Shown here: in pieces, positions 4,987 through 63,195 of the stretch
Layout: every line of letters starts with the position of its first letter
Numbering within the stretch: position 1 is the stretch's first letter
Assembly (NCBI GenBank): GCA_028286665.1
Contig: JAQBRD010000012.1
Span: 841-64,840, forward strand
DNA length: 64,000 bases
Direction: 5' to 3'
Source: Candidatus Tayloriibacteriota bacterium
GTDB taxonomy: Bacteria > Patescibacteriota > Minisyncoccia > Phycocordibacterales > PALSA-1337
Translations under genes and position numbers: made by a program
The notes under the pieces: model-generated
Seen by the model: only the letters and a program-made list of their open reading frames with translations
What the model was told of the DNA's origin: nothing
The model's database searches: none

Positions 4987-5009
4987 TCCGAAAAAGGTAC
5001 AATGAAGGG

Positions 5010-6221
5010 ATGAAGAAAACAGCACTGTTCCTCATTCCTTTTTTGTTTTTCATGATCGCGATTTCGCAATCGGTTCCTTTGCGCGCGGATGCGCAGGCTT
5101 CGAAAGCTTCCGAGGTCGCGCTCCTTCAGGATACGGTAACTACGGTGAAAGCGAAGGTCGTCAGCATCGAAAGCGAAGAAGTGAGGGCGGTGCCGGGCAC
5201 CGACATCACGAGCAATTATCAGACGATCAAAGTCCGAATTCTCGAGGGCGCAGAAAAGGACAAGACGATCACTGTCGCCAACGATTACCTGAGCCTGAAG
5301 AAAGGCGAGACTTTCTATCTGACGATCACTATCCGCGGAGAAGACGGCAGGGAAATGTATGCGGTTTCAGAGCCATACCGTCTACCTGCGGTACTTTTTT
5401 TCGTGGGGCTTTTCATCGCGCTCGTCATCATCTTCGGCGGCATCCAGGGAATCAGAGGACTGCTCAGCCTTGCTGGCAGCCTCATCCTCATCATCTATGT
5501 CCTATTGCCCGGAGTGCTGCACGGATATTCGCCGGTGCTCGTCAGTCTCGGTGTCGCTGCGCTCATCATCATCGTCGGCTCGTACATAACGCACGGTTTC
5601 AATAAGACGACATCTGCCGCAGTCATCGGCATGATCGTCACGATCGCGTTCACTGGCGTGCTCGCATATGCCGCGGTGCACTGGAGCAGGCTTTCCGGCT
5701 TCAGCAATGAGGAGGCAGTTTACTTGAATCTCGATACTCGAGGCTCGATCGATTTCGTCGGACTGCTGCTTGGCGGGATCCTCATCGGATTGCTCGGCGT
5801 GCTGTACGATGTGGCGATCGGCCAGGCGATCTCCGTCGAAGAATTGAATCGGGTCGCGCCGCATCTGCCGCGAAGCGTCATATTCAAGCGATCGATCCGC
5901 ATCGGCAGGGAACATATCGGCGCGCTCGTGAATACGCTCGCGATCGCGTATGTCGGCGTATCGCTGCCGCTCCTGCTGCTCTACATGAAGTCGTCCGACA
6001 GTTCGATCGCGCTCACGCTCAATCGCGAGCTGTTCGCGACCGAAATCATCCGCACGATGATCGGCAGCATCGGCCTCGTTCTCGCGGTGCCGATCACGAC
6101 GCTCATCGCGGTGTGGATGCTCATGAAGCGAGAGAACGACGCATCCGAGGAAGATTCTGTTTCAGCTGAAAAGATCGCGAAGGAACAGGAGGCGATCGAG
6201 CACGTCGGCCATAGCCACTAG
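5010..6221 (+). CDS. YibE/F-family integral membrane protein
   Basis: Signal or anchor sequence, a soluble N-terminal domain, then a multi-helix YibE/F-like hydrophobic core. TACAAT lies 6 nt upstream of the ATG. Confidence 0.65.
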   Translation: MKKTALFLIPFLFFMIAISQSVPLRADAQASKASEVALLQDTVTTVKAKVVSIESEEVRAVPGTDITSNYQTIKVRILEGAEKDKTITVANDYLSLKKGETFYLTITIRGEDGREMYAVSEPYRLPAVLFFVGLFIALVIIFGGIQGIRGLLSLAGSLILIIYVLLPGVLHGYSPVLVSLGVAALIIIVGSYITHGFNKTTSAAVIGMIVTIAFTGVLAYAAVHWSRLSGFSNEEAVYLNLDTRGSIDFVGLLLGGILIGLLGVLYDVAIGQAISVEELNRVAPHLPRSVIFKRSIRIGREHIGALVNTLAIAYVGVSLPLLLLYMKSSDSSIALTLNRELFATEIIRTMIGSIGLVLAVPITTLIAVWMLMKRENDASEEDSVSAEKIAKEQEAIEHVGHSH

Positions 6222-6254
6222 TCCTGCATTCGAGGTGTGCTAGAATAAGCCAAT

Positions 6255-7313
6255 ATGGAAACACGCTCCCAATATTACATGTTCGTCGGATTGCTTATCG
6301 GCGCATTCTGCCTCGCTGCGCTCGTCTTCCTGCCGTACATGACGGCGATCGTCATCGCGATCGTGCTCTCGGTCATCTTCAGGCCAGTCCATCGTCTCGT
6401 CGCGAGATTCGTCGCAAAAGGAGATCAGGGAAGCACGTGGGCAACGATCGTGTCGATCATCGTCATCGCGATCATCGTCATCACGCCGCTCACATTCCTC
6501 GCGATCAGGCTCTATACTGAAACAGGAACGCTCTATCTGAGCCTCACTGACGAAGGCGAACGCGCGCACATCATCTCATCTCTCAACAAGGGCCTCAGCG
6601 GCATCGCGCACACCTTCGATGTCACTCCGACATTCAATTTCGATTCGTTCAACGTGACCGAATACATCCAGAGCTTCTTCGATTGGCTGCTGTCGAACAT
6701 GGACACGGTCTTCTCGAGCGCTGCGAAGATCGGCTTGAATATCTTCGTCATCCTCCTCGCGCTCTTCTATCTGCTCCGCGACGGCAATGCGCTCCGCAAG
6801 CAGCTCATCCTCTTCAGTCCGCTCAAGGACGATCATGAGTCCCAGATTCTTGATAAGCTCAAGCAGGCGATCCATTCGGTCGTCTCCGGCAGCATCGTCG
6901 TCTCCATCATGCAGGGAATCCTTTCGGGCATCGGCTTCTCGATATTCGGAGTGCCGAACCCTGTGCTCTGGGGAACGATCGCGATGATCGCCGCTTTCAT
7001 TCCAGGCATCGGCACCTCGCTCGTCATGATTCCTGCGATCCTCTATCTCTTCGTCATGTCGACGCATCTGCACGCGCTCGGCATGCTTATCTGGGCGATA
7101 CTCGCAGTCGGTCTCGTGGACAACCTGCTTTCGAGCTTCCTCATAAATAGGAAGGTGCGAATCCATCCGTTCCTCATCCTGCTCTCGGTGCTCGGAGGCC
7201 TTTCGTTCTTCGGACCGGTCGGTTTCATCCTCGGCCCGCTCATACTCGCGTTCCTATTCGCCTTGATTGAAATATACAAGACGAATCATTCGGCACCATC
7301 GCATAATAGCTAA
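6255..7313 (+). CDS. AI-2E family transporter (UPF0118/PerM-like permease)
   Basis: Eight-helix permease topology with the conserved C-terminal G-rich helices. Extended -10 TGCTAGAAT at 6238-6246, 8 nt before the ATG. Confidence 0.75.
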   Translation: METRSQYYMFVGLLIGAFCLAALVFLPYMTAIVIAIVLSVIFRPVHRLVARFVAKGDQGSTWATIVSIIVIAIIVITPLTFLAIRLYTETGTLYLSLTDEGERAHIISSLNKGLSGIAHTFDVTPTFNFDSFNVTEYIQSFFDWLLSNMDTVFSSAAKIGLNIFVILLALFYLLRDGNALRKQLILFSPLKDDHESQILDKLKQAIHSVVSGSIVVSIMQGILSGIGFSIFGVPNPVLWGTIAMIAAFIPGIGTSLVMIPAILYLFVMSTHLHALGMLIWAILAVGLVDNLLSSFLINRKVRIHPFLILLSVLGGLSFFGPVGFILGPLILAFLFALIEIYKTNHSAPSHNS

Positions 7314-7366
7314 ATTGGCATCGTGTGTGCTAGACTCTTATTTCTTCATAATTTTCTCAAAACCAT

Positions 7367-8497
7367 ATGTCTTTCATCGACGAAATCACAATTCATGCTC
7401 GGGCAGGACGTGGCGGCGACGGCGTCGTGCTGTGGCGCCATGAGCGCGCGAAGGAATTCGCAGGAGCCGCCGGCGGCAATGGCGGAAGGGGAGGCGACGT
7501 ATACATACGGGCTGTCCGCGATCTTTCGATACTCAACAGATACCGCAACTCGAAGGAATTCGAGGGAGGCAACGGCACCGACGGCATGAGGAACAGCATG
7601 CATGGAAAGGACGGAGACGACATCACGATCGATCTTCCGATCGGTTCCATCGTGAAGGATATGCGGAATGGCCGGCTCGTCAGCCTGCTCAGTGACGGCC
7701 AGCTCATCAAGATCCTGAAGGGAGGCCGCGGAGGTCTCGGCAACGAGCATTTCAAGGCTTCGACGAATGTCACGCCGCTGCAATCGACTCCCGGAAAGGA
7801 GGGCGAAGAATCCGATTTCCATATCGAACTCGAACTCGTGGCGGACGGCGGACTCATCGGCTTGCCGAATGCGGGAAAGTCGTCGCTCCTGAATGCGCTC
7901 ACGAATGCCGATGCGAAAGTCGGCAGCTACCAATTCACCACGCTCGAACCGAACCTCGGCGCATTGCCGGGAGGCTTCATCCTCGCTGACATTCCCGGAC
8001 TCATCGAAGGCGCTTCGGAAGGCAGGGGCCTCGGCATCAAATTCCTCCGCCACGTGAAGCGCACCCGCATGCTTTTCCATCTCATTTCTCTCGAAGGCGT
8101 CGTCGATATCACCAAAAAGGCCGACAAGGTCTCGAAGTTCGACGCTGATAGCGTCGCCGAAGTATACGAGACGATCCGAGAAGAGCTCAAGAAATACAGC
8201 GACGCGCAGGCGAAGATCGCAGAGGAGAGTATCGATGGCGTGCTCGACGAGCAGGCGTCGAATCTCGATCAGAAGCCTGAGACGATCATCTTCACCAAGA
8301 CCGACGTATTCGGCACTGACAAGAAGGTCATCGCGGCAGGACTCGCAGCTGCGAAGAAATCGATCATGAAAGTCGCCAATGCCGGCAAGAAGCCTGCGAA
8401 CAAGATCAAGGAAAGCGATATCCTTTCAGTCACCATCCTCGACGATGTCTCAGTGAAAGTCCTCATGGATGAAATCGTGAAGCGGCTCCGGGCATAG
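7367..8497 (+). CDS. obg: GTPase Obg/CgtA
   Basis: Obg fold with GGDGG/GGNGG repeats, followed by the G-domain motifs GLPNAGKSSLLNA and DIPGLIEGA. Confidence 0.95.
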   Translation: MSFIDEITIHARAGRGGDGVVLWRHERAKEFAGAAGGNGGRGGDVYIRAVRDLSILNRYRNSKEFEGGNGTDGMRNSMHGKDGDDITIDLPIGSIVKDMRNGRLVSLLSDGQLIKILKGGRGGLGNEHFKASTNVTPLQSTPGKEGEESDFHIELELVADGGLIGLPNAGKSSLLNALTNADAKVGSYQFTTLEPNLGALPGGFILADIPGLIEGASEGRGLGIKFLRHVKRTRMLFHLISLEGVVDITKKADKVSKFDADSVAEVYETIREELKKYSDAQAKIAEESIDGVLDEQASNLDQKPETIIFTKTDVFGTDKKVIAAGLAAAKKSIMKVANAGKKPANKIKESDILSVTILDDVSVKVLMDEIVKRLRA

Positions 8498-8544
8498 CTC
8501 CTGCTCCCTTTTTTATTTGGCGAATTTGAAGTACACTAGCGAGC

Positions 8545-10080
8545 ATGAAATACGTACCGACGATCGGACTCGAAGTGCACGCTGAACTTGCGACGAAGAG
8601 CAAGATGTTCTGCGCGTGCGTCAATGATCCCGATGAGGAAAAGCCGAACGCGAATATCTGCCCGGTCTGCATGGCGCACCCGGGAACTTTGCCCGTGCTC
8701 AATCACGAGGCGATCAAGCATGTGCTCAAGATCGGCCATGCGGTGAAAGGGAACATCGCTGACTTCACCGAATGGGATCGCAAGCAGTATTTCTACCCTG
8801 ACATCCCGAAGGGCTACCAGATCAGCCAGTACAAATATCCGCTCGTCTCCGGAGGCGAGCTTGCCGGCGTGGCGCTCACGCGCATCCATCTCGAGGAAGA
8901 CACTGCGCAGTCGACGCATGATGCGCCAGGCCTGCATGTCGCAGACAAGTCGCTCGTGAATTACAATCGCGCAGGCGTGCCGCTCATGGAGCTCGTGACC
9001 GAGCCGGTCATTCATGATGCCGAGACCGCGCTCCGATTCGCGAAAGAACTGCAGCTCCTCCTCCGATGCCTCGGCTCAGGCGAAGCGAATATGGAAAAAG
9101 GCGAGATGCGAGTCGAGGTGAATATCTCGATCGCTACCCCAGAGGATACTGCTGCGCGGAAATTCGGCACGAAGACCGAGGTGAAGAACATCAATTCATT
9201 CCGTGCCGTCGAGCGCTCCATCGTCTATGAAATCGCGCGCCATACGCGCATTCTCGAAGCAGCGGAAATCGAGCGAGCAGCAGGGAAGGAGCCGATCGAA
9301 AAAATCGTTCAGGAGACTCGCGGTTGGGACGAATCGTCCCAGAAGACTTTCTCGCAGCGGGCAAAAGAAAGCGCGCATGACTATCGGTATTTTCCGGATC
9401 CTGACATCCCGAAGTTGAAGGTGAGCGAGGTCGCGGATTTTGCTCCTGCAGCGCTCACGAAAGAGATGCCCGAACTCCCATGGGAGAAGCGTGCTCGATA
9501 TAAGACCGCATACGAAATGACCGATAAGGAAGTCGCGGTGTGCGTCGAGTCTGAAATCATTTCTGAATATTTCGAAAAGACGATTGCTCCGTTCTCGTCA
9601 GACAAGAAGCTTGTGCGTCTCGCGATCAACTACATCCTTTCCGATTATGTCGGCACGCTCAAGAAGGAATTCGGCGAAGGGGAATTCGTTTCGCACATGT
9701 CGATCGTCCCGCCGGAGCAATTCGCGAAGCTCATCCAGCTCATCGGATCCGGCAAAGTGAATTCGCGCGGAGGAAAGGATACGCTCTCGATCATGTATGC
9801 CGAAGGGAAGGTTGCGATCGCGGCTGCGGCTTCCGGCGCTCCGGTTTCATTCGTCGATCCCGAAATGCTCGCCGAGAAGAACGGCTTCATACAGAAAAAT
9901 GACGAAGGCGAAATCAAAAAGATCGCTGAAGCTATCGTCGCGGCGAATCCCGCGGTAGCTGCCGATTACAAAGCCGGAAAAGCCGCCGCTCTCCAGTTCT
10001 TCATCGGCCAAGGCATGAAGGCGACGAAGGGAAGCGCCAACCCAGAACTCCTGAAGACCATTTTCATGTCAATTCTCTAA
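8545..10080 (+). CDS. gatB: Asp-tRNA(Asn)/Glu-tRNA(Gln) amidotransferase subunit B
   Basis: GatB signature residues (PTIGLEVHAELATKSKMFC, CPVCMAHPG) and the C-terminal GatB/YqeY domain. Confidence 0.95.
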   Translation: MKYVPTIGLEVHAELATKSKMFCACVNDPDEEKPNANICPVCMAHPGTLPVLNHEAIKHVLKIGHAVKGNIADFTEWDRKQYFYPDIPKGYQISQYKYPLVSGGELAGVALTRIHLEEDTAQSTHDAPGLHVADKSLVNYNRAGVPLMELVTEPVIHDAETALRFAKELQLLLRCLGSGEANMEKGEMRVEVNISIATPEDTAARKFGTKTEVKNINSFRAVERSIVYEIARHTRILEAAEIERAAGKEPIEKIVQETRGWDESSQKTFSQRAKESAHDYRYFPDPDIPKLKVSEVADFAPAALTKEMPELPWEKRARYKTAYEMTDKEVAVCVESEIISEYFEKTIAPFSSDKKLVRLAINYILSDYVGTLKKEFGEGEFVSHMSIVPPEQFAKLIQLIGSGKVNSRGGKDTLSIMYAEGKVAIAAAASGAPVSFVDPEMLAEKNGFIQKNDEGEIKKIAEAIVAANPAVAADYKAGKAAALQFFIGQGMKATKGSANPELLKTIFMSIL

Positions 10081-10156
10081 AATCTGCTTATTTTGCTTCA
10101 TTTATCCCCACTTTTTTGCTCAAAAAAGCCGCATTTCCGTGCTAAACTACTGGGGA

Positions 10157-13100
10157 ATGAACGAGCTACCCTCAAATTTCAGGAAATCTTTCCTCATAAC
10201 GGCAATTTTGCTCGCCTTTTTTCTCGTTTCATCGAATATTTCATACGCATTTTCTTTCAATGACCTGCTGCAGCCCGCGAATAAGGGCATGCAGGTCGTC
10301 GGCAATTCCGCTCTCCAGGCGCTTTCCTTCGAGTCGATCAAATCCTTCATCCCGGATGTCATCAATAGGTTCGCCTCGAATCTTAACTGTACGGTCGATG
10401 AAGTCATCGGGCGAGACCTGACTGCGGTGTGCGCGAAAAGTCCCGCAATCCTCGCCTCTCGGAAGGTTCCTGCTTCTCATAATTTGGCTTCTGTCGATCC
10501 TGGAAAGGGCGCGCTTGCGTCCAAGGACAAGCCTGCTGCAAATCCAGCTGCTGCAGCTCCGGATCAAACAGTAGCCGCTGCGCCCGCAGTCACTCCAAGA
10601 CCTCAGACGACAACAGTCCAGACGCAGACAGTTCAGGTCGCTTCTGTTTCTTCGAATCTTTCATCGGCAGAATTCGCAGCTATCCAGCGGCAGCTTGCGG
10701 ATGTTTTCGAAAGCATCAGGCTGCAATCGCGCCAGATCACCTCGACTGTCGATCATCTCGGATCGGCGTCGAGCGGCGGCGGTGGCAGCGTGAACTCGGA
10801 CCAGATCAATGGCTCGATCTCAGGCCTCTCATCACGGATATCTTCATTGGCTGCAAGCTCTACTGACGCGGGCAACATCACCGCTGGCATACTCTCAATT
10901 CCGTATGGAGGCACGGGGACATCGACCGCTCCGGCATTCGGCCAGCTTCTCCTTGGAAATGCGAATGGCGGATACGATCTTGTTTCGACATCATCCCTCG
11001 GAATCGTAGGCGCCGGTTCGGTCGGAACAAGCACGATCAATTTCGGCACGACAGGTCAGCTCGCATATTATGCTTCAGACGGCACAGCCGTTTCAGGAAT
11101 CTCGACTTCGTCGCTCGGCCTCACTACTTCGAACATTGCCGAAGGATCGAACCTCTACTTCACCGCCCTCCGCGCCTCCACCACCGCCGGCCAGGTCGTC
11201 GCCGCCGCGACCTCGACCGTCCGCAATTTCATCTCGTCCTCGGCTTCAGGCCTTACGTACGCACCGAGCACGGGAATATTCTCGCTGACTTCCGGCTTCA
11301 ATATCCCGCTGTCGGCTTCGAGCACCGAATGGGCTTCCTTCTTCAATGCGCCCTCGTCGCGGATCACGGCAGGCAATCTCCTCTCGTGGACGGGGAACAC
11401 GCTCAATGTCTCGACCTCGTCGCTCGGCCTCACTACTTCGAACATCGCCGAAGGGTCGAACCTCTACTATACCGATGCCCGCGCCTCGACGACCGCGATC
11501 AATGTTCTCGCAGCCACGACCTCGCTGCCGAATATCGCTACATTGGCGGGGCTGACGTCGGCTCCCTCGCTCGCGCTCTCCGCTTCGAACATCACGTCCG
11601 GCGTCCTCGCGGTCGCCCGCGGCGGCACCGGCACGACGACTGCGCCGACGCTCGGGCAGATACTCCTCGGAAACTCGGCAGGCGGATACAATCTCGTCGG
11701 GACCTCGACGCTCGGGTTCCTCACTACGGATGTGAGCGAGGGATCGAATCTCTACTACACCGACGTTCGCGCAGATGCCCGCATCGCCGCCGCGACCTCG
11801 ACCGTCCGCAATTTCATCTCGTCCTCGGCTTCAGGCCTTACGTACGCACCGAGCACGGGAATATTTTCACTGACTTCCGGCTTCAATATCCCGCTGTCGG
11901 CTTCGACAACTGACTGGAATATTGCATTCGTCAACAGGATCACCGGCGTGAACGGCCCTCTCTCGCTCCTTTCGAATGCGCTCTCGATCACTCGGGCCTC
12001 AAGCACTGCAGACGGATATCTCGCTTCGACCGACTTTGCGGCATTCACTGCGAAGGAATCTGCGATCGCCGCTTCTACTACAAGTTCATATTTCAGGGGA
12101 GACAAGACATTCCAAGCACTCGATACGTCAGCCGTTGCTGAAAATGGAAACCTCTACTTCACCGCCCTCCGCGCCTCCACCACCGCCGGCCAGGTCGTCG
12201 CCGCCGCGACCTCGACCGTCCGCAATTTCATCTCGTCCTCGGCTTCCGGACTGACGTATGCTCCGAGCACCGGCATCTTTTCACTGACTTCCGGCTTCGC
12301 CATTCCGCTCACTGCGTCGACGTCTGACTGGGCTTCTTTCTTCAACACTCCTTCATCGAGAATCACTGCAGGTGGCGCCCTCGCATGGACGGGGAACACG
12401 CTTAGCGTCGCGACATCGTCGCTTGGATTGACGACGACGAACGTCGCTGAAGGGAATAATCTGTACTATACGACAGCCCGTGCCTCGACCACCGCGATCC
12501 AGGTGCTTGCCGCTACGACATCTCTTCCGAACATAACGACACTATCAGGAATCACTTCATTCGGAACCGCAAATATTACGACGACTGCTGCCGGCAGCTT
12601 CGCAGCAGGCACTACGACCGTGTCAGGTCGCCTCAGCGTCGGCACTACTCCACCGGCAGCGACGCTCGGCGTGAAGGGAACTGCAGGCACGAGCCCGTTC
12701 GTTGTCGCTTCATCGACCGGTTCACAGCTGCTCACGCTGCTCCAGAGTGGAAATCTCGGTGTAGGCACTACAAATCCTCTCTACAAATTTGATATCACCC
12801 AATCAGGTTCGGCCAGCGGTTTCCATCTCGGCGGAGATTCGACAGATAAAGGATTGTATATAACGAACGTGCCCGGAACGAATGATACATATTTCGGAAA
12901 TGTTGCTTTCAATTCAAGCGGTCAATGGGTCTTAAAATCTACATACGGATCATTTACCGGGTTTGATTCCTCAGGCACATCTTTTTATAGCGACAGTGGC
13001 TTAACTACCGGCGCTGCATATACTCCGACCCGTCGAATGCTCATTACTCCTACGGGGAACGTAGGAATCGGAACCACCCCTTCGACTGCGAAGCTCGAAG

Positions 13101-17611: not shown

Positions 17612-17679
17612 TAGAAGTATTTCAACAACTGAGGATAAGTCAGCATTTCCATATTTCAATCATGGTATAATTACGTCGA

Positions 17680-20600
17680 ATGAAGCAGCGACTACCAAAT
17701 CAACGATGGTTATTTGCGCTAATAGCTTTTGCGATCGCGCTTTTTTCTATTTCTCCGAAAATTTCCCAGGCGTATTTCTCAGACATCTTCAAGGAAGGAG
17801 CTTCTGTCGTCATGTCCAGCACTTTGAATGGGATGAATGCTGTCGGAAAATCGACGATCCAGGCATTCTCATTCGAATCGATCAGGTCCTTCATTCCGAA
17901 CTTCATCAATTCAGCCGCATCAGGAATGAATTGCGGCGTAAATAAAATCGTCGGCGCTCCTCTTCCTGTTGTCTGCATGAAAAATCCGGCATCCGTCCTC
18001 GCAGCCGCATCAGCAGACGCATTTGTGCCTGTGCCTATGCCTGCGCACGCGTACGTTGCGGCTGTTCCGGCACCAGCATCAATATCAAAACCGTCTTCGG
18101 CATTATCGTCAGCCTCGATACCGACGCGACTCCCGCCTCCGTCTGCGCCGCAGGTCTCGACTCAGACGCAGCTTACTTCAGCAGAGTACGATGCTATTCA
18201 GCAGCAGCTTGCGAATATCGCCTTGGGCACCAGGAGTCAGCTTATCCGGCAGACGGACTCCACAGTCGATCATGTCGGCCAGTCCATGTCGAATCTCGCG
18301 ACGTCGGTCGCGTCTGCAGCGGCGAATGCATCGAACGCTGGCAATATCACTTCAGGCGTTCTGTCGGTCGCGCACGGAGGCACCGGAGCGACGTCAACTC
18401 CGACGTTCGGACAGGTCCTTCTCGGCAATGCAAGCGGCGGATATGATCTCGTATCGACATCGTCGCTCGGGATCACGAGCGGCGCCAGTTCGCAATGGAC
18501 CACATCAGGTTCCAATATCAGCTTCATTGCTGGCAATGTGGGCATCGGCTCATCGACGCCGATCGCGACGCTTTCAGTGAAGGGAACTGCAGGCACGAAC
18601 CCTTTCGTCGTCGCTTCGTCGACTGACGTGCAGCTCCTTACGCTCCTCCAGAATGGAAGCTTCGGCATCGGCACAAGTTCACCGGTATCGACCCTGTCCG
18701 TTGCGGGAAGCGGAACATTCACCGGAGGCGCAAGCTTCGGCGGCAGCGTCGGCATCGGCACGTCTACGCCGATCGCGACGCTTTCAGTGAAGGGAACTGC
18801 AGGCACGAACCCCTTCGTCGTCGCTTCGTCGACCGGCGCGCAGCTCCTTACGCTCCTCCAGAATGGAAGCTTCGGAATCGGAACTGCAGCTCCGAATGCA
18901 AACGCGATCCTCGACGTATTCCAGGGAGCGAGCACGACGCGCATCAGCAGAACGACGACGCAGTATATACAGTTCACCACGGACGGAGTGGTCAATGAAG
19001 TGAGGGGCGTGAGCGTTTCAGGAGGCGCGAAGCCTTTCCGAATCGCGAGCGATTCGAATAGCAGCGGCCTCCGCCTCTTCACCGGCACGACGGATAAAGT
19101 GTTCATCGACAACAACGGCTTGGTCGGCATCGGCTCGACGACGCCTTCTGCGCTGCTCACGCTGCTCGGATCAAATGCTGCGACAACGACGCTTTCGATC
19201 AGGCCTGCAGCATCGCAGACTGCGAGCCTCGTCAATTTCTATGATACTACTGGAGCGATCTCATCGGTCATCGCCGCTGGCGGAAACTTCGGCATCGGCA
19301 CGACGACTCCGGGATCCAAGCTTGTGGTGAACGGAGACATCAATCTCACCGGCAATATTTATCAGAACGGCGTCCTTTTCACGGGCGGCGGTGGAAGCTC
19401 GCAATGGACGTCTTCGAGCACTGATATTTATTACAATACCGGCAACGTCGGCATCGGCACCAATTCCCCGATATACAAGCTAGACATAGCCGGAACCGCT
19501 CATGTCTCAAGCGACCTCACTGTCGGCGGAATCTTCACGACGACCGCATTCACCGCAAATGGAACAGCCACATCCTTCAATGATGCGATAACTATAAATC
19601 AGTCTACAAGCTCGACGCGATTTGTCCGTCCTGGAACTCCTGTGTTGCAAGCTATCGACATCACGACTGACAGCAATTCGAATAGGATAAAAGCATTCGC
19701 TGGACCCGGCACGAACAAGCAATTCCGAATCGAAGCCGATATCGGAATGACTGGACTTTCGCTGAGAACAGGAGGTTCTGAACGAGTCCTCATCGGCCCG
19801 AGCGGAGACGTATCCGTCGGAACGGCATCGACGAGCGCAAGGTTCACTCTCATGGCGTCCTCATCTCCGACGTATGCGATATTCGATGTGACTGACACAT
19901 CGCGCAATTCTTTTTTCAAAGTCTTCGGCAACGGCTTTGTCGGCATCGGCACGACGACCCCTTCGGCAAGATTCGCGCTCGACGGATTCAGCGGCGCGGA
20001 TAATGCTAACGCATCGCAAGCACTCGCGATCTATGGTGGTAAGGGGGGTCTGAACAACAACGCGACTCCGGGCGGATTCAGCGGAGGAGGCATAGATCTT
20101 TTTGCCGGTCCGGGCGGAGATTCGAGCGGAGGCGGCGTCGACGGCGGCAGCGGAGGTGTCGTCAATATATTCGGCGGAGCAGGCGCATCGAACGGCGATG
20201 GTACCGAAAACGCAGGACTCGGAGGCGCAGTCAACATCGGCGCGGGCAACGGAGCTGCTTCTCTGGGCGGCGGCTTAGGAGGGGCGCTTACGCTCGCATC
20301 AGGAAATGGCGGCAATGATACTGCGAGTGGATTCGGTCAGCCTGGCGATGGCGGCCTCCTGAGCGTCATTGCAGGTTTTGGCGGATCAAGCAACGATAAT
20401 TCCGTGAATGGCGCGAATGGAGGAAATGTCATCATCAGCGGCGGAGCACCCGGGGCTGGTCTTGTCGCAGGCTCGTATGGAAATATCATCATGAATCAGA
20501 ACGGAGGAAAGGTCGGCATCGGCACCTCTACGCCTCTGTACAGACTTCATATCCAGCGATCCGGAGACGGACCGGTCGCAGGCTTCACCGATGCCAACGG

Positions 20601-21456: not shown

Positions 21457-21559
21457 TTTCATTGACATAACCTGTCAAGTCAGTTACCATTATGTATAAG
21501 TAAGTTTTCTCAGTCGCTTACGAAGTTAATAATATATAGACGAGGTATATAGAACCCAA

Positions 21560-21874
21560 ATGGCAAAGAAGCTATACGTAGGAGGAATTTCATACGGCAC
21601 CAGCGAAGAGACTCTCAAGAATCACTTCGCTCAGGCCGGAGCAGTTGAATCAGCAAGCATTATCATGGACAAGATGACGGGCCGATCAAAAGGTTTCGGA
21701 TTCGTTCAGATGAGCAATGATGCTGAGGCAGACAATGCTATCAACATGTTCAACGGCAAGGAACTCGAAGGCCGAACTCTTACGGTTAACGAAGCGCGAC
21801 CAATGGAACCACGAGCTCCACGACGTGATTTCAACCGAGGTGGAAACGGAGGTGGCTCACAGAGCAACTGGTAA
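21560..21874 (+). CDS. RRM-type RNA-binding protein with Gly-rich tail
   Basis: RNP-2 (LYVGGIS) and RNP-1 (KGFGFVQM) motifs. TATATA lies 8 nt before the ATG. Confidence 0.85.
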   Translation: MAKKLYVGGISYGTSEETLKNHFAQAGAVESASIIMDKMTGRSKGFGFVQMSNDAEADNAINMFNGKELEGRTLTVNEARPMEPRAPRRDFNRGGNGGGSQSNW

Positions 21875-44390: not shown

Positions 44391-44404
44391 TAGGCAAGTA
44401 TAGC

Positions 44405-45723: not shown

Positions 45724-45787
45724 CGAGAAAGTCCAGCTCTGGATAACTCGCGTGTACGTTTCCTTGCGAATAGGCTATACTTATCTC

Positions 45788-45948: not shown

Positions 45949-46524
45949 CTACTCGCGAACGATCTTGAGGCCCCACTTGGTCGCGTTCGGGAGACGTTCT
46001 TTTTTTGAAACTCTCAATTGATAGAAAGCGAATACGGTCGTCGTCACAGTCGCAAAGCCTTTGAATATGACCCACTCATCAGGCGTGAGCGATATGCGGG
46101 CGATCTCATTGGCGATCGTGAGCAGGGTGAAAAGCACCGCCCATCGGAGCGACATGATCTTCCAGCCGCGATCGCTTATCGAGAAGACTTCCTTGAAGAG
46201 CGGCTTCAGGAGCGGATGCCCGAAATAAAGTCCGGTGAAGAGGACGATGGCGAAAGCTGCATTGTAGATCGTGTCTTTGATAATGAAGAAGAACGGGCTG
46301 TCGAGGATGATCGTGAGGAGTCCGAAGCCGATGATGCTTGCGCTCACGATGACGGGGAACCATGCGAGCTCTCTCCGCTCGATATATCCGACGACGAGGG
46401 CCATCGCGGTGAGCGCGACGAAGATCGCTGTCGCTTTCACGAAGCTGAGCAATTCCGAGGCGATGAGGAAGGCGAGGATCGGCCCGAATTCGATCGAGAG
46501 GTTCAGTATCAGCTTGTTTTTCAT
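45949..46524 (-). CDS. Intracellular septation protein A-like (YciB/IspZ family) membrane protein
   Basis: Five transmembrane helices. The C-terminal segment LRWAVLFTLLTIANEIARISL...WVIFKGFATVTTTVFAFYQ resembles the YciB consensus. Confidence 0.55.
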   Translation of the reverse strand: MKNKLILNLSIEFGPILAFLIASELLSFVKATAIFVALTAMALVVGYIERRELAWFPVIVSASIIGFGLLTIILDSPFFFIIKDTIYNAAFAIVLFTGLYFGHPLLKPLFKEVFSISDRGWKIMSLRWAVLFTLLTIANEIARISLTPDEWVIFKGFATVTTTVFAFYQLRVSKKERLPNATKWGLKIVRE

Positions 46525-46563
46525 AAAAAATACAATACCATACTATCATGAGTATGGCAATAT

Positions 46564-48023: not shown

Positions 48024-48074
48024 CCTGCATAAGCCCCTGTGCTACACTATTCTTATTACCATTCATCTATCTCT

Positions 48075-48785
48075 ATGAATACTTTCAATGCGAAATTCCG
48101 CAGCGCCGCTTCAAAGATAGCATCATTTTGTGCAGTTGCAGCGATCATGCTCGCGCCTGCCGTTTCATCTGCGCATGTCGTCGTAACTCCCAATACGGCA
48201 GCAGGCACGTCCTATCAGACATTCTCGATAGGAGTTCCGTCGGAACGCGAAAGCTCGACAGTCTCGATTCGTCTCGCCATTCCAGAGTTGCTCTCAAGCG
48301 TCCGTCCGAATGTGAAGCCTGGCTGGAAGATCGATATCCATTCTGCGCAGAAGGGAACATCGACTGTCGTGACGGAGATCGTCTGGAGCGGAGGATCGAT
48401 CCCTGCAGGTTTCAGAGACGATTTCGCCTTCAGCGTGAAGACTCCGGCATCCGGTTCCATCATCTGGAAAGCGTATCAGACCTATGCCGATGGCAAGACC
48501 TTCGCCTGGGATGCGCAGCCGGCCGCTGAGCATGGACACGATCATGAAAGCGTATCCGGGCCGTACTCGACGACGAAGATCATTGCTGCTCCTGCGGGCG
48601 CGATGATGCGTGACGATGATGGTGGAGATATGCATATGGATAGCGACATGCATGACAGCGATGCTTCTGCTGCGCCCAGCCATGCCGATCACTCGACGCA
48701 TGACCTCATCCTGCCGCTCATCGCTATCGGGCTGGCGCTCGTCGCGCTCATGGAGATCGAGAAGCTGCATAAGAAGATCAAATAA
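48075..48785 (+). CDS. YcnI-like (DUF1775) copper-binding protein with His/Asp/Met-rich tail and C-terminal membrane anchor
   Basis: Signal peptide. The mature N-terminal HVVVTPNTAAGTSYQTFSIGVPSE is the DUF1775 signature. A metal-binding-like tract MHMDSDMHDSD is followed by a transmembrane helix. Confidence 0.7.
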   Translation: MNTFNAKFRSAASKIASFCAVAAIMLAPAVSSAHVVVTPNTAAGTSYQTFSIGVPSERESSTVSIRLAIPELLSSVRPNVKPGWKIDIHSAQKGTSTVVTEIVWSGGSIPAGFRDDFAFSVKTPASGSIIWKAYQTYADGKTFAWDAQPAAEHGHDHESVSGPYSTTKIIAAPAGAMMRDDDGGDMHMDSDMHDSDASAAPSHADHSTHDLILPLIAIGLALVALMEIEKLHKKIK

Positions 48786-50932: not shown

Positions 50933-51049
50933 TATGGATGTTCCCTTGTCGGATTACTGCTGTCATGAGAATGAGGATATCATGCTGATCGCTCCTTGTC
51001 ATCTCGGAGCAGTCTTGACACGGAATTTAAGATGCTGCATCATATCTAA

Positions 51050-51790
51050 ATGAAACACGCCATCAGGCAGCGTTTTCCAAAAAAAGCCGCTTCTGTCAGC
51101 ATTCCGACGCAAGAAGACATTCTCAAGGAACCTCTGTTCCGAAGGGCAACCGCGGGGTTCGTGCGGCAGCATGGCGGAAGATTCGCTCAGGAATTCCTCG
51201 CGCATGCCGAAAAGCTCGGCTTGGTCAGCGAAAAATCCCGCTTCATGTGCCAGAGAAGCCGCTTCGTAGAAGGAGCATATCCGAGCTCTCCGGACTGGCA
51301 TTTCGATGTCATTCCCGGTCTCCCGAGCTCGATCGAGGAGCATGTCACCAATCCGATCGTCTCGGCGATCTTGTGCGCATGCTCGCCTGATCGGGTTTCG
51401 ACTACCGAATTCATCAGCGAAGGAACGGTCATCATTGACGATGGCTCGAATGAGCGGCAGCACTACAAGGGCGGAGAATATCTCCACGGTACCGGGGGCA
51501 AGGTCAACTTCTTCCATCGGCAGATCGAGGACGCGATCAGCAGGGGAGAAATATCGGCGCAGTCGCTCGAGCCGAATCATATCTACGTCTACGATTCATC
51601 GTCGCTTCACCGAGCTTCGAAATTTACCGTGTCAGGAGGCTACCGCCTGATCATCCGCATCACCAATGCTCCTGATGGCTTCATGCAGGAAATTCCGATA
51701 AATGATCAGATCTTGACGCCCGAGCGCGATCAGTACATCGTATTCGTCGACGGATCCTCGGAGGTGTTCGAGAAGCGCTTCATTTCCTAG
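51050..51790 (+). CDS. Hypothetical protein
   Basis: 246-aa ORF with consistent codon usage. A TTGACA -35-like hexamer sits at 51016-51021. Confidence 0.5.
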   Translation: MKHAIRQRFPKKAASVSIPTQEDILKEPLFRRATAGFVRQHGGRFAQEFLAHAEKLGLVSEKSRFMCQRSRFVEGAYPSSPDWHFDVIPGLPSSIEEHVTNPIVSAILCACSPDRVSTTEFISEGTVIIDDGSNERQHYKGGEYLHGTGGKVNFFHRQIEDAISRGEISAQSLEPNHIYVYDSSSLHRASKFTVSGGYRLIIRITNAPDGFMQEIPINDQILTPERDQYIVFVDGSSEVFEKRFIS

Positions 51791-51817
51791 TCGGCCCCCG
51801 TCTGCTATGATGGATAT

Positions 51818-52255
51818 ATGCCTCCGGAAATAACCCAAGAACATATCGATCGCCATGTCCACAGGGGCCTGAAAGCCAGAGTCCGCATCTATTTGTGCAT
51901 ATCCGTATTGATCGTCATAGCGATCGTCTATCGGATCGTCGCGCATGGAAGCGCAGGCTTCTATCCGGTGATCATCTTCATCGTCGGCATCGTGATCGGG
52001 GTCTTTCTCTCGAAGATGTTCAAGATCTCGTGGGATGAGCAGGCGCAGAAAGTCATCTCTCGCATCGATATCTACGGCTTTCTCCTGCTCGCTGCATATA
52101 TCGCATTCGAATTCCTCGGCGAGCGTTACATACACGAGCAATTCTCAGGCTATGATGCCGCGACGATCGTCCTCGCGCTTGCCGGCGGCGCCATCCTCGG
52201 ACGAGGATGGGGAATAGGCCGCAAGATGCTCCAGGTGCTCGGCGAGAATATATAA
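51818..52255 (+). CDS. Hypothetical membrane protein (about four transmembrane helices)
   Basis: TGCTATGAT lies 6 nt upstream. Confidence 0.5.
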   Translation: MPPEITQEHIDRHVHRGLKARVRIYLCISVLIVIAIVYRIVAHGSAGFYPVIIFIVGIVIGVFLSKMFKISWDEQAQKVISRIDIYGFLLLAAYIAFEFLGERYIHEQFSGYDAATIVLALAGGAILGRGWGIGRKMLQVLGENI

Positions 52256-53399: not shown

Positions 53400-53412
53400 T
53401 CTACAATCATCT

Positions 53413-53982
53413 ATGAACACGAAACCATCGAAAGTTTTCATTATTCATGGATTTGACGGAAGTCCGAATGGCGGATGGAGACCTTGGCTTATGGGCGAAT
53501 TAGAGAAATCCGACATATACGCGTGCGCCCTCTCGATGCCGACTCCAGCTGAACCTCTTTGCGACGAATGGGTGGAAGAGATAGGTCGGCATGTGCAGCG
53601 GAACAGCGACGCAAATATTTATCTGGTCGGCCATAGCCTCGGAGTTCCTGCGATACTCCGTTATCTCGAATCCATGCCTGATTCAACGAAGCTCGCCGGG
53701 ACGGTCCTTGTTTCAGGTCCGTGTACTCAGACGAAGAATGAGAAGCTCAAGCATTTCTTGGAGAAGCCCTTCGATTTCAGCTCGATACGATCGAAAGCTG
53801 GTAAAGTCGCAATCATTCACGGAGATAATGATGAAGTCGTTCTTGTCACCGAAGCGCACATCCTTTGCGAAAAGCTTGGTGGGGAATTGCACATTGTGAA
53901 GAACGGAGGCCATCTCAATGGCTCATCAGGATGGTTCGCGCTTCCGGATTGCCTCGCGGTTCTTAAAAACTGGATCGACTGA
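53413..53982 (+). CDS. Serine hydrolase of the YdeN/RBBP9 alpha/beta-hydrolase family
   Basis: IIHGFDGSP...GHSLG nucleophile elbow. About 190 aa, the size typical of PF06821. Confidence 0.65.
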   Translation: MNTKPSKVFIIHGFDGSPNGGWRPWLMGELEKSDIYACALSMPTPAEPLCDEWVEEIGRHVQRNSDANIYLVGHSLGVPAILRYLESMPDSTKLAGTVLVSGPCTQTKNEKLKHFLEKPFDFSSIRSKAGKVAIIHGDNDEVVLVTEAHILCEKLGGELHIVKNGGHLNGSSGWFALPDCLAVLKNWID

Positions 53983-56847: not shown

Positions 56848-56976
56848 AGTATTTGATGAATTTAATTATAGGGCATACATTACTGATAATACGTGCCTTT
56901 ACGTGACCTTTATACTCTATATATGACGTATGTTCTTCTGCTGGATTACATGCCTTCTGAGTGCTACAATTCGGCC

Positions 56977-57150
56977 ATGGAAATGCAAATGGATATGAAA
57001 GGATTGGACAAGGCGTGCGCATGCAAGTCGGACAAGGTCGCCGGAGCATGCTGCAAGAAGGACGAGAAATGCCCATGCGGTTCGAACGAGAAGGTGAGCA
57101 AATGCTGCGTTGAGCGAATGACTGAAACCGCTCAATCATCAAATGCCTAG
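56977..57150 (+). CDS. Cys-rich 57-aa protein (metallothionein-like candidate)
   Basis: Nine Cys in CxC, CC, CPC and CC arrangements. TGCTACAAT lies 6 nt before the ATG. The 3' end overlaps the folC start by 8 nt. Confidence 0.45.
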   Translation: MEMQMDMKGLDKACACKSDKVAGACCKKDEKCPCGSNEKVSKCCVERMTETAQSSNA

Positions 57151-59011: not shown

Positions 59012-59118
59012 CTGGTGTTCGTTATGGAATCAGTATATCGCGGCTTCGAAAAAGAGAGTAGCCCGATCCGGATATGATATAATAGCTGGAACTTGCCACT
59101 TCGTAATCAATGTAAGAG

Positions 59119-60975
59119 ATGAAACCAGTCACTAATTCATATGCGCGCGCTGATTTTGCGATAGCAATTCTCATTGCTGCGATATTGTTCGTCGGCTTCG
59201 TGCTCTACACCGTCCAGCCGGTATCGGCCAGCATGCAGCTCTGGTTCCTCCTGCTCCCGATCGTCATCATCATCGGCTCGCTGCCGCTTCTTTTCGAGAT
59301 CATCAGCTCGCTTTCGCGCGGGCATTTCGGCGTCGACATCATCGCGCTCGTCGCTATCATTTTTTCCCTTTCCACGGGCGAGACGATCGCGGGAGCCATC
59401 GTGCTGCTCATGCTTTCCGGAGGGGATTCGCTTGAGCATTTCGCCCAGCGCCGAGCGAGATCGTCCATCGAACGCCTCCTGCAGCGGGCGCCGACGATCG
59501 CTCATCTTCATCGTCGCCAAGAGATCGTCGATGTGCCGGTAAGCGAAATCAGAGCCGGAGATATCCTCATCGTGAAGCCTGGCGAGATCATCCCGCTCGA
59601 CGGAACGATCATCGAAGGCATGTCCATCATCGATGAGTCCGTCATCACCGGAGAGCCGCTTCCTCGGGATGTCCTCGCGGGAAGCCAGATCGTGAGCGGC
59701 ACGACCAATGGCGCGGGTCTCATCAAGTTCCAAGCGTCGGACTCATACGAGAAGAGCGTCTTCGCCGGCATCCTTCGGCTCACAAGCCAGGCCGAAGCTC
59801 AGAAAGCACCCATCATCCATCTCGCCGATACCTACAGCGTATTCTTTACCGCAATCACGTTCGCGATCGCATGCTTCGCCTGGATCATCAGTCCGAAGCT
59901 CGCTACTGCAGTGCTTGTCGTCGCCACTCCGTGTCCGCTCATCCTCGCGGCGCCAATCGCGTTCATCGCCGGCATGGGCCGCGCCGCGAGGAAGGGCATC
60001 ATCGTGAAGCATGGCGGCGTCTTCGAGACGCTCGTGAAGGCAAAAGCTTTCTTCTTCGACAAGACCGGAACGCTCACCTTCGGCATACCGTCAGTCGAGA
60101 AGGTCATCGTGCTCAGCTCTTCTTCCGAAGGCAAGAAGGATCTGACTGAAAAGCAGATCATTCGGGACGCTGCTTCGCTCGAGCAATTCTCGACGCATGT
60201 CCTCGCGCAGGGAGTCGTGACGTTGGCGAAGGAACTCGGCATATCGCTCATGACCCCTGACAATATCCAGGAAACTGTCGGCGGCGGCATTATCGGAACC
60301 ATCGACGGCCGGCAGTACGCGATCGGAAAGCTTTCATTCATCGCGTCATTCGGCATCGCCATGCCGCAGCTCGCGCAGCTGGAGAAGCCCGGCAAGCCTG
60401 CAGTCTACATCGCCTGCGACGGCAAGCTCATCGGCCAGCTCATCTTCTCCGATAAGGTCCGAGCGAACGCGCCTGAAGTCCTCAAGCGCATTTCCGATGC
60501 CGACGTCGAAACGATTCTCATCACCGGCGACGCGCAGGAGCGGGCAGCGGAAGTCTCGAAAGCTCTCGGGTTCACTGGCGTGCGCGCGAATTGCCTTCCT
60601 TCTGACAAGGTCGCCTGGGTCCAGGAATTCGAATTGCGGAATAAGCCCGTCGCGATGATCGGCGACGGCGTGAATGATGCGCCAGCTCTTGCTGCAGCTT
60701 CCGTCGGCATCGCTCTCGGATCGCATGGCGCGACTGCCGCCACAGATGTCGCCGACGCGGTCATCATCGTCGACGACATCAGCAAGGTCGCCGATCTCGT
60801 CGACATCAGCCGCCGCACCATGCGGATCGCGCGCCAGTCCATGGTCGCCGGAATGATACTGAGCCTGATCGCTATGGTCGCCGCTTTCCTCGGCTTCATA
60901 CCGCCGGTCCAGGGCGCGATCCTTCAGGAAGTCATCGATGTGCTCGTCATTTTCAATGCGCTGAGAGCCTTGTAA
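59119..60975 (+). CDS. Heavy-metal-translocating P1B-type ATPase (PCP motif, P1B-5-like; no N-terminal metal-binding domain)
   Basis: DKTGTLT, GDGVNDAPAL and TGES (ITGEPLP) motifs. A transmembrane helix carries ATPCPL, the TPCP motif. Confidence 0.9.
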   Translation: MKPVTNSYARADFAIAILIAAILFVGFVLYTVQPVSASMQLWFLLLPIVIIIGSLPLLFEIISSLSRGHFGVDIIALVAIIFSLSTGETIAGAIVLLMLSGGDSLEHFAQRRARSSIERLLQRAPTIAHLHRRQEIVDVPVSEIRAGDILIVKPGEIIPLDGTIIEGMSIIDESVITGEPLPRDVLAGSQIVSGTTNGAGLIKFQASDSYEKSVFAGILRLTSQAEAQKAPIIHLADTYSVFFTAITFAIACFAWIISPKLATAVLVVATPCPLILAAPIAFIAGMGRAARKGIIVKHGGVFETLVKAKAFFFDKTGTLTFGIPSVEKVIVLSSSSEGKKDLTEKQIIRDAASLEQFSTHVLAQGVVTLAKELGISLMTPDNIQETVGGGIIGTIDGRQYAIGKLSFIASFGIAMPQLAQLEKPGKPAVYIACDGKLIGQLIFSDKVRANAPEVLKRISDADVETILITGDAQERAAEVSKALGFTGVRANCLPSDKVAWVQEFELRNKPVAMIGDGVNDAPALAAASVGIALGSHGATAATDVADAVIIVDDISKVADLVDISRRTMRIARQSMVAGMILSLIAMVAAFLGFIPPVQGAILQEVIDVLVIFNALRAL

Positions 60976-61207: not shown

Positions 61208-61241
61208 GGCCACGACTCTCCTAGTCGTGGCCAGCTTTTTT
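61208..61241 (+). terminator. Rho-independent terminator
   Basis: GGCCACGACT ctcct AGTCGTGGCC followed by agcTTTTTTT. It lies 230 nt after the ATPase stop. Confidence 0.75.
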
Positions 61242-61272
61242 ATATTTATGCCGATAGCGGTATACTATCCAT

Positions 61273-63195
61273 ATGATCTACTTCATCCTCTCATTCGTCG
61301 GCGGAATCCTCACGGTCCTCGCGCCATGCGTGCTGCCGCTCTTGCCAGTCATCGTCGGCGGTTCGATCTCGAATGGGGCAAATGACAAAGGCCAGGCTGG
61401 AACGCAGCCTGCTGACAGGAAGCGCGCGCTGATCATCACGATATCGCTCGGCATCTCGGTCATGCTCTTCACCTTCATCTTGAAGGTGAGCACGCTGTTC
61501 ATCATGATCCCGCAGTCTGTCTGGACATGGATCTCGGGCGGCATCATTGTCATCTTCGGCGCGATCACGCTGTTCCCGAGCCTCTGGGAAAAAGTGAAAT
61601 TCATGTCGAAGCTCAATCGCTCGTCGAACAAGGCGATGGGCGCAGGCTACATGAGAAAGAGCGTGCTGGGCGACATCATCATCGGCGCGTCGCTCGGTCC
61701 GGTCTTCTCGACCTGCAGTCCGACGTATTTCGTGGTCCTCGCGACGGTGCTTCCGATGAGCCCGCTCGCCGGCTTCATCGATCTTCTCGCATATACCGCC
61801 GGCCTCTGCGGAGCGCTTCTCATCATCTCGCTTGTCGGACAGAAAGTCATGGCGAAGCTCGACATCGCAGCTGATCCGAAAGGCTGGTTCAAGAAGACGC
61901 TCGGCATCATCTTCATCATCGTCGGCTTCATGATCCTCGGCGGCGCGGACAAGAAGCTCGAGGCATGGCTCCTCACGTCCGGATTTTTCGATGTCACGAA
62001 GATCGAGCAGAGCCTCCTGCGTTCGGCTGACCAGACTGATATGCCGATTCCGCCGTCGACGACCGATGTCATCATGGGAACTTCGACCGAATCGAGTGCA
62101 GGGCAGGCGTCATTCCTAAGCGCTGCCGAAAAGGCAGTCCGGTTCAAGAAATCTCCCGAGATCGTCGGCGCGAGCGGCTTCATCAATACGAAAGGCCTCG
62201 GTGCAAATCCCGCTGACGATCATGCGTCGATTACCGTCGCGCAATTCAAGGGAAAGAAAGTCGTGCTTCTCGATATCTGGACATACAGCTGCATCAATTG
62301 CCAGCGCACGCTTCCGTACGTCGAAAGCTGGTACGACAAGTATGCCGATACGGGCCTCGAGATCATCAGCATCCATACGCCGGAATTCTCATTCGAGAAA
62401 GTGCAGAAAAACGTAGAGGATGCCGCGAAGCGTCTCGGCGTGAAATATCCGATCGTTCTCGACAACGACTACTCGACATGGAACGCGCTGCACAATCAAT
62501 ACTGGCCGCGCAAATATCTCGTCGATATCGACGGCTACATCGTCTATGATCATATCGGCGAAGGGAATTACGATGAAACCGAGAAGGCGATTCAGAAAGC
62601 CCTTATCGAGCTCCATGGTCGCAATGGCGAAACGATGCCGATGCCGGCAGTGACTTCGTTCTCGACGCCGGCTGCTGGCAGCATGAAGCCCGTGAGCTAT
62701 GACGGCGCGCGAGTCGGCAGTCCCGAAGTGTATTTCGGTGCCGGCAGGAACGAGTACTTGGCGAATGGCCGACAAGGCATGAGTGGCGATCAGTCTCTTG
62801 TCGCGCCGGATGCTTCGAAGGCTCAAAAAAATGCTCTCTATCTCGGCGGCACCTGGTCATTCGAGAGCGAATTCGCTGAGGAGAAATCAGCGAGCGCAGC
62901 AGCTCCGGCTACCGTTCTCTTCAGATACAATGCGAAAAATGTGTACATGGTCGCGAGTGCCGACAAAGCCATCGCGCCGAACGGCGTCGAGATCGAGGTG
63001 TATAAGGATGGCGTGAAGCAGTGCGGCGTAAGCGGTGCCGGCAATTTCTGTTCAGCTAATTCATCAGCCCCTTCGGTGATCATCAATGCCGAGCAGCTCT
63101 ATCAGCTTATCGAAGGCGACAGCTACGGCGAGCACACCCTCGAGATCCGCATCAAGAAGGGCGGACTGAAAGCCTTCACGTTCACCTTCGGCTAG
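61273..63195 (+). CDS. Thiol:disulfide interchange fusion protein: CcdA/DsbD-type transmembrane domain, thioredoxin-like (redoxin, CxxC) domain and an extra C-terminal beta-rich domain
   Basis: CVLPLLP (DsbD_2) in the first transmembrane helix. WTYSCINCQRTLPY is a TlpA/ResA-like CxxC motif. The C-terminal roughly 240 aa has no known homolog. TATACT lies 6 nt before the ATG. Confidence 0.8.
   Translation: MIYFILSFVGGILTVLAPCVLPLLPVIVGGSISNGANDKGQAGTQPADRKRALIITISLGISVMLFTFILKVSTLFIMIPQSVWTWISGGIIVIFGAITLFPSLWEKVKFMSKLNRSSNKAMGAGYMRKSVLGDIIIGASLGPVFSTCSPTYFVVLATVLPMSPLAGFIDLLAYTAGLCGALLIISLVGQKVMAKLDIAADPKGWFKKTLGIIFIIVGFMILGGADKKLEAWLLTSGFFDVTKIEQSLLRSADQTDMPIPPSTTDVIMGTSTESSAGQASFLSAAEKAVRFKKSPEIVGASGFINTKGLGANPADDHASITVAQFKGKKVVLLDIWTYSCINCQRTLPYVESWYDKYADTGLEIISIHTPEFSFEKVQKNVEDAAKRLGVKYPIVLDNDYSTWNALHNQYWPRKYLVDIDGYIVYDHIGEGNYDETEKAIQKALIELHGRNGETMPMPAVTSFSTPAAGSMKPVSYDGARVGSPEVYFGAGRNEYLANGRQGMSGDQSLVAPDASKAQKNALYLGGTWSFESEFAEEKSASAAAPATVLFRYNAKNVYMVASADKAIAPNGVEIEVYKDGVKQCGVSGAGNFCSANSSAPSVIINAEQLYQLIEGDSYGEHTLEIRIKKGGLKAFTFTFG

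Follow-up and report, generated by a model that had tools for sequence, protein, structure and literature searches.

In a 64,000-nt stretch of DNA (the window) from a Candidatus Taylorbacteria bacterium, 22 genes open with an ATG that lies 5 to 9 nt behind a TANNNT box, and Shine-Dalgarno (SD) sites appear to be out of use. We consider it very likely that the box is an extended -10 promoter placed for leaderless transcripts in a genome without SD use, as judged from the DNA sequence. Leaderless transcripts would then serve roughly 40% of the genes in the window and roughly half of its transcription units. An original prediction, made from the same DNA, had read the boxes in this way, and the reading is backed by the 6-nt spacing, a TG signature, the distribution over first genes, and the absence of SD sites.

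The host is an uncultured, ultrasmall bacterium of the Parcubacteria/Paceibacteria in the Candidate Phyla Radiation (CPR/Patescibacteria). The window has a GC content of about 54% and contains the housekeeping genes secA, obg, gatB, tgt, class II aldolase, folC, hisG/hisI, bL25 and msrA. Several proteins encoded in it are identical to those of an NCBI metagenome-assembled genome named Candidatus Taylorbacteria bacterium (locus tags JWO73_*, contig of 67.4 kb). The closest tgt relatives among GTDB species representatives share at most 64% identity, and their names are nearly all from the CPR (Parcubacteria, Paceibacterota, Nomurabacteria, Kaiserbacteria and similar); a few records are named otherwise. 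For the statistics, 55 curated genes were compared with 980 internal ATGs of the window, and a 50-kb E. coli sequence was used as an outside control. The number of nucleotides between the -10 hexamer and the start codon is referred to as the gap, and a gene at most 12 nt behind a same-strand gene was counted as operon-internal.

A TANNNT hexamer at a gap of 5-9 nt was found before 23 of the 55 curated starts, compared with 21 of the 980 internal ATGs (2.1%, P = 4e-24). We consider 22 of the 23 motif-bearing starts to be credible sites. The same preference was seen when gene calls were not used at all. The motif TGNTANNNT occurs 61 times on the two strands of the window, and the ATGs that open a reading frame of at least 50 codons behind it numbered 10, 2, 3 and 3 at gaps 6, 7, 8 and 9. 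When the minimum length of the open reading frame (ORF) was raised to 80 codons, 8, 2, 3 and 3 such ATGs remained, or 16 in all, compared with a background of 0.44 per gap (P = 7e-11). Starts were also chosen without regard to the motif, as the first ATG in each ORF of 150 codons or more. TGNTANNNT at gap 5-9 preceded 11.7% of window starts, compared with 2.1% in E. coli, and the E. coli control showed no -10 spacing peak.

The 20 boxes and ATGs listed in the original prediction all lie at the coordinates it gave, 5-9 nt apart. The box TATATA at 21546 departs from TANNNT, which leaves the RRM gene at 21560 a weak case. Three boxes listed as plain hexamers are correctly placed and are in fact extended, namely TGGTATAAT at 17663, TGATATAAT at 33235 and TGTTAAGAT at 34113. 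The list was also incomplete: a scan of every TGNTANNNT in the window added three sites of the same kind (marked "added" below), and two near-consensus variants had been overlooked as well. The leaderless-type sites are as follows (box, gap, start codon).

4998..5012, + strand: YibE/F-like; TACAAT, 6 nt, ATG 5010
6238..6257, + strand: AI-2E transporter; TGCTAGAAT, 8 nt, ATG 6255
8532..8547, + strand: gatB; TACACT, 7 nt, ATG 8545; Pfam domain from residue 6
10140..10159, + strand: 2484-aa protein; TGCTAAACT, 8 nt, ATG 10157; GTG 10139 overlaps the box
17663..17682, + strand: 1258-aa protein; TGGTATAAT, 8 nt, ATG 17680
22662..22679, - strand: LOG-like, divergent from tgt; TGATATACT, 6 nt, ATG 22664
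22717..22737, + strand: tgt; TGCTATGAT, 9 nt, ATG 22735; relatives align from residue 1 (M-x-F)
25171..25188, - strand: pfkB Met3; TGCTATACT, 6 nt, ATG 25173; Met1 25179 adjoins the box
25207..25224, + strand: class II aldolase; TGCTACAAT, 6 nt, ATG 25222; annotated start identical
27198..27215, + strand: 79-aa protein (added); TGATATAAT, 6 nt, ATG 27213
28802..28822, + strand: 1231-aa surface protein; TGCTAAAAT, 9 nt, ATG 28820; terminator hairpin and T-run directly upstream
33235..33253, + strand: gene at ATG 33251; TGATATAAT, 7 nt
34113..34130, + strand: NUDIX; TGTTAAGAT, 6 nt, ATG 34128
34655..34670, + strand: EamA; TATACT, 7 nt, ATG 34668; Pfam domain from residue 1
44388..44405, - strand: PAP2, 229 aa (added); TGCTATACT, 6 nt, ATG 44390; directly behind the terminator of a tRNA
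44665..44682, + strand: gene at ATG 44680; TGCTATAAT, 6 nt
45776..45790, + strand: candidate 33-codon ORF; TATACT, 6 nt, ATG 45788
46522..46540, - strand: IspA-like (added); TGGTATTGT, 7 nt, ATG 46524
51803..51820, + strand: gene at ATG 51818; TGCTATGAT, 6 nt
53402..53415, + strand: serine hydrolase; TACAAT, 5 nt, ATG 53413
56962..56979, + strand: 57-aa Cys-rich protein; TGCTACAAT, 6 nt, ATG 56977
61261..61275, + strand: DsbD-thioredoxin; TATACT, 6 nt, ATG 61273; terminator 61207-61233 just upstream
21546..21562, + strand: weak case, RRM protein; TATATA (not TANNNT), 8 nt, ATG 21560
40726..40743, + strand: near-consensus variant, DoxX_2; TGCCATACT, 6 nt, ATG 40741; annotated start identical
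51015..51052, + strand: near-consensus variant; TTGACA-17-CATCAT, 6 nt, ATG 51050

Over the 22 sites, the gap was most often 6 nt (12 sites), followed by 7 (4), 8 (3), 9 (2) and 5 nt (1). Since transcription usually starts at the 7th nucleotide after the hexamer, a gap of 6 places the predicted start on the A of the ATG. Gaps of 7-9 nt would be compatible with the same start or with a leader of 1-3 nt.

Alignment of the 22 sites on the hexamer yielded the consensus T(16) G(20) C(12) TA y A M T, with the number of sites in brackets. A G at -14 was present in 20 of the sites (background 31%, P = 8e-9), and TG at -15/-14 in 16 (background 7%, P = 3e-14), even though TG had played no role in site selection. 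The TG of extended -10 promoters is a contact of the sigma-70-type RNA polymerase holoenzyme. No conserved -35 element was detected in the alignment of the 22 promoters, only a TTGACA-like hexamer at few sites. The motif was found before one of 10 operon-internal genes, compared with 22 of the 45 others (Fisher P = 0.03).

The intergenic spacers around the boxes are minimal. Terminator hairpins with T-runs adjoin the box at 28820, 44390 and 61273. Divergent genes are separated by spacers of 48 nt (25173/25222), 70 nt (22664/22735) and 39 nt (46524/46564); in the first of these pairs the aldolase and pfkB boxes stand back-to-back, with 48 nt from ATG to ATG. At ATG 27213, the stop codon of the upstream gene lies inside the -10 hexamer. 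The same type of box was also found farther away from start codons, and a plain -10 hexamer of the TANNNT form was found in the non-coding context of a tRNA promoter.

2403..2472, + strand: secA, leadered; TGCTATAGT 58 nt before ATG 2470; no SD
7328..7369, + strand: obg, leadered; TGCTAGACT 30 nt before ATG 7367; U/A-rich leader, no SD
48040..48077, + strand: DUF1775, leadered; TGCTACACT 26 nt before ATG 48075; no SD
59075..59121, + strand: P-type ATPase, leadered; TGATATAAT 35 nt before ATG 59119
44601..44641, - strand: tRNA promoter; TTGACA-17-TATGTT, 12 nt before the tRNA gene

The bL25 gene (28059) was considered as a further leaderless case and rejected, as its TACCAT at gap 8 is probably a chance match and a better box, TATAGT, lies 13 nt before the ATG. 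The short predicted leader of this gene (28040-28061, + strand) reads GCCUCCU, which is anti-SD-like rather than SD-like.

Shine-Dalgarno sites were not detected. The original prediction had noted that GGAGG-like sequences were missing, and indeed, at gaps of 4-12 nt, no GGAG, GAGG or AGGA precedes any of the 55 genes. The gene-call-free test detected no SD spacing peak in the window, compared with a clear GGAG peak at gaps 6-8 in E. coli. The comparison of SD frequencies that the original prediction had suggested gave a similar picture: at motif-blind starts, an SD-like 4-mer was present in 5% of cases in the window, 8% in relatives and 55% in E. coli. In the 32 genes lacking the motif, the region from -10 to -1 is A-rich and G-poor and contains no SD-like sites. 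Operon-internal genes overlap or adjoin the preceding stop codon (-8 to +7 nt), a geometry which suggests termination-reinitiation coupling.

The pattern extends to relatives. In 63 Parcubacteria loci (983 kb), ATGs that open an ORF behind TGNTANNNT were found 62 times at gap 6 and 46 times at gap 7, compared with about 10 times at other gaps. The enrichment at gaps 6-7 was 5-9-fold in each GC bin, with P values from 5e-12 to 4e-21, and at least one case was present in 52 of the 63 loci. It was specific for ATG, GTG and TTG not being enriched. Among tgt orthologues, TGNTANNNT stands 6-9 nt ahead of the start in many of those that are first genes, but not in those directly behind another gene.

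The assignment of the ATGs as true starts was supported by several kinds of evidence. In gatB, aldolase, EamA, serine hydrolase, DsbD, NUDIX and IspA, the Pfam domain starts within residues 1-9, and tgt relatives align from the first residue. The public annotation agrees on the starts at 10157, 25222, 40741 and 44390. This includes the original prediction's preference for ATG 10157 over GTG 10139, as the annotated 2484-aa product begins at the same ATG. For pfkB, the proposed start at Met3 (25173) is plausible: Met1 directly adjoins the box, and a second promoter would not fit into the 48 nt between the divergent genes. The public annotation nonetheless uses Met1.

The strongest single case is the Cys-rich protein at 56977. 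The public record gives 75 aa from a start 18 codons further upstream, compared with 57 aa from the leaderless ATG. All four of four homologues (49-63 aa) open with MEMxxDMKGLDK, exactly at the leaderless ATG. Among the orthologue loci, L066 has TGCTACAAT, 6 nt and ATG, and L072 has TGCTATAAA, 8 nt and ATG; the orthologue in L067 is operon-internal, behind rplK, and the one in L071 has a leader, its TATAAT lying 29 nt before the start, and lacks an SD.

The mechanism that we propose would begin with an extended -10 element (TGCTAyAMT, no conserved -35) placed 6 nt, sometimes 5-9 nt, before the ATG. Because box and ATG are so close, RNA polymerase would start at the A of the AUG or 1-3 nt before it. 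The resulting mRNA would have neither a 5' untranslated region nor an SD sequence, and the ribosome with initiator tRNA would presumably bind the 5'-terminal AUG directly. Operon-internal genes may be reached by termination-reinitiation coupling, and first genes with a leader may rely on A/U-rich, G-poor leaders that act independently of SD pairing. The intergenic layout is compressed, in that terminator, extended -10 and ATG follow one another and divergent pairs are separated by as little as 39-70 nt. We infer from this arrangement where transcription begins and how the ribosome loads.

Several observations weigh against the leaderless interpretation. The 5' ends are predicted from promoter geometry, and the five sites with gaps of 8-9 nt would yield leaders of 1-3 nt unless the start position shifts. 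G at -14 is missing from two sites, and the test on operon-internal genes reached only P = 0.03 with n = 10. Moreover, the boxes at 5010, 6255, 27213, 51818 and 53413 lie 7-33 nt past the upstream gene without a terminator, and read-through leadered transcripts probably coexist for these genes. This last point is also an argument for regarding the boxes as real but minor internal promoters, the genes being translated mainly from leadered polycistronic or upstream-initiated mRNA. The five upstream genes are on the same strand, and the window is densely packed with genes that lie mostly on one strand. We nevertheless think this explanation unlikely. A clear terminator precedes many sites (28820, 44390, 61273), the divergent spacers of 39-70 nt (22664/22735, 25173/25222, 46524) fit no second promoter, and conservation of the ATG-only 6-nt spacing across 63 relatives points to selection on a start-at-AUG geometry.

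A different possibility is that TANNNT is not a promoter element at all and instead represents an A/T-rich, non-SD ribosome-binding or translation-enhancing motif in leadered mRNAs, as in the Bacteroidetes-type group B of the GeneMarkS-2 classification. The genome does not use SD sites, and the A-rich, G-poor sequence upstream of its other genes implies that some SD-independent recognition of leaders is needed; the short distance of some boxes from the preceding gene (7-33 nt) would also fit. Against this, TG, the polymerase contact one base 5' of the hexamer, accompanies 16 of 22 boxes, and the motif precedes only one of 10 operon-internal genes, where a ribosome-binding site would be most needed. 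The same box is found 26-58 nt before other genes, and a -10 hexamer of its form before a tRNA. GeneMarkS-2 itself, furthermore, relies on the contrast between first and internal genes to tell a promoter from a ribosome-binding site (PMC6028130). In group B, the genes have leaders, and one non-SD motif is shared by first genes and internal ones (PMC6028130). The window resembles this group in the disuse of SD sites and in its A-rich, G-poor upstream regions, and differs from it in that the motif would be a promoter, is largely confined to first genes, and would place the transcript start at the AUG. We consider a ribosome-binding role of the motif very improbable. Least credible of all is that the pattern arose by chance from A/T-rich sequence before starts, combined with a choice of starts that happened to fit. 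The sites were picked by eye, and the one at 21546 does not match the motif, but the gene-call-free and motif-blind tests show the same peak, internal ATGs carry the motif at 2.1%, E. coli has no peak, and P values range from 1e-10 to 1e-24. Chance is refuted.

Leaderless gene starts have parallels in known systems. Transcription start-site studies in M. tuberculosis reportedly found -10 elements of the TANNNT type with little -35 conservation. GTG-initiated leaderless genes occur in mycobacteria, unlike the situation here, where ATG alone is enriched in the relatives. In haloarchaea such as Haloferax volcanii and Halobacterium salinarum, leadered mRNAs largely lack SD sequences. The frequency of leaderless transcripts is high in haloarchaea (PMC6028130). 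The combination of frequent leaderless transcripts with SD-independent initiation elsewhere is thus shared, but haloarchaea use an archaeal TATA box about 26 nt upstream and archaeal translation machinery, whereas the host studied here is a bacterium with a sigma-70 extended -10 element.

The closest match is group C of GeneMarkS-2, in which a Pribnow box lies 6-8 nt before the first gene in 25-50% of operons (PMC6028130). This group is typical of Actinobacteria (Mycobacterium, Streptomyces, Corynebacterium) and Deinococcus-Thermus, CPR bacteria are not among the groups named for it, and its leadered and operon-internal genes keep SD sites (PMC6028130). The window agrees with group C in the -10 box at a short fixed distance, the association with first genes, and the lack of SD sites before leaderless genes. 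It departs from group C in that the other genes of that group use SD sites, and none of the 55 genes do so here. The window is thus an instance of a known bacterial leaderless architecture in a new lineage, combined with complete SD absence. In the literature published under CPR lineage names we found no account of leaderless architecture, only incidental mentions, in a search that covered few subscription journals.

Only 48% of the 16S rRNAs of Parcubacteria were found to carry the anti-SD motif CCTCCT, and bS21 is often absent (Tsurumaki et al. 2022, PMC9297842). The same study suggested that SD helices do not form where the motif is missing; leaderless mRNAs are not mentioned in it (PMC9297842). 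The lineage is the same, and the absence of SD sites in the window is the matching observation on the mRNA side. It may be tied to anti-SD loss. Rfam and fuzzy matching to conserved 16S/23S segments found no rRNA, either in the window or among the 63 loci of relatives.

Whether Paceibacteria-type Parcubacteria have, as a group, dropped SD/anti-SD pairing is in our view evenly balanced. They would then initiate by three routes, namely leaderless transcripts (about half of transcription units), termination-reinitiation, and A/U-rich, G-poor leaders. If true, group-wide abandonment of SD pairing would be the functional counterpart of anti-SD loss in reduced ribosomes, and a bacterial parallel to haloarchaea. 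The pattern also brings a deep-branching lineage with reduced ribosomes into the debate over the origin of leaderless initiation, as an ancestral trait or as an outcome of genome reduction. There are practical consequences, too. CPR bacteria are known almost only from metagenomes, and their start codons, small genes and promoters are set by software. A -10 box 6 nt upstream could serve as a rule for correcting starts, as for the Cys-rich protein, annotated 18 residues too long, and as a lead for finding small genes. Constructs for expression in those few CPR bacteria that can be cultivated should need no more than TGnTAnnnT, 6 nt and ATG, and no ribosome-binding site.

The candidate 33-codon ORF (45788-45889, + strand) encodes MPRRTTTPKKASRSKKTKKRLATKKARLAAKKK, a very basic, Lys/Arg-rich peptide. 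No Pfam or NCBIfam match was found for it, its exact sequence was not present in the public collection, and tblastn against relatives returned low-complexity noise only. In size and charge it may resemble small ribosomal proteins such as bS22.

The Cys-rich protein (56977-57150, + strand) has the pattern CxC...CC...CPC...CC and a faint SEC-C motif. In at least four further contigs of Paceibacteria (L066, L067, L071, L072), its gene is conserved immediately before folC. In L067, L068 and L070, the order is secE-nusG-rplK (L11), Cys-rich gene, folC, and there is no rplA (uL1) after L11. This gene order is suggestive of the uL1-lacking Parcubacteria subgroup, which has been reported to overlap with anti-SD-lacking lineages.

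The two large proteins encoded next to each other at 10157-17611 and 17680-21456 (+ strand; 2484 and 1258 aa) each contain a Peptidase_S74 (endosialidase chaperone) domain near the C-terminus. Between 47200 and 48040, about 850 nt are without a convincing gene. The ORF at 47235-47897 in this region has a GTG start and no Pfam match, and was passed over by a codon-usage gene caller.

The tRNA gene at 44444-44600 (- strand) is 157 nt long and matches Rfam RF00005 with 41 bits. About 86 nt are inserted behind its anticodon arm, and the gene was not called by ARAGORN. Between the P-type ATPase and DsbD genes (61046-61240, + strand), an orphan extended -10 element, TGGTATAGT, is followed about 150 nt later by the strong terminator at 61207-61233. 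No Rfam match was found for the region, from which a transcript of about 170 nt could arise, either a small RNA or the message of a small ORF. The 270 nt preceding hisG (50780-50990, - strand) contain TGATATCCT and, 7 nt behind it, a 16-codon ORF, MTAVIRQGNIHSSLLQ, with two similar terminator-like hairpins farther on. The ORF was considered as a histidine attenuator leader peptide, an idea rejected because it has one His only, and Rfam returned no match for the region. It could still function as an attenuator or give rise to a small transcript.

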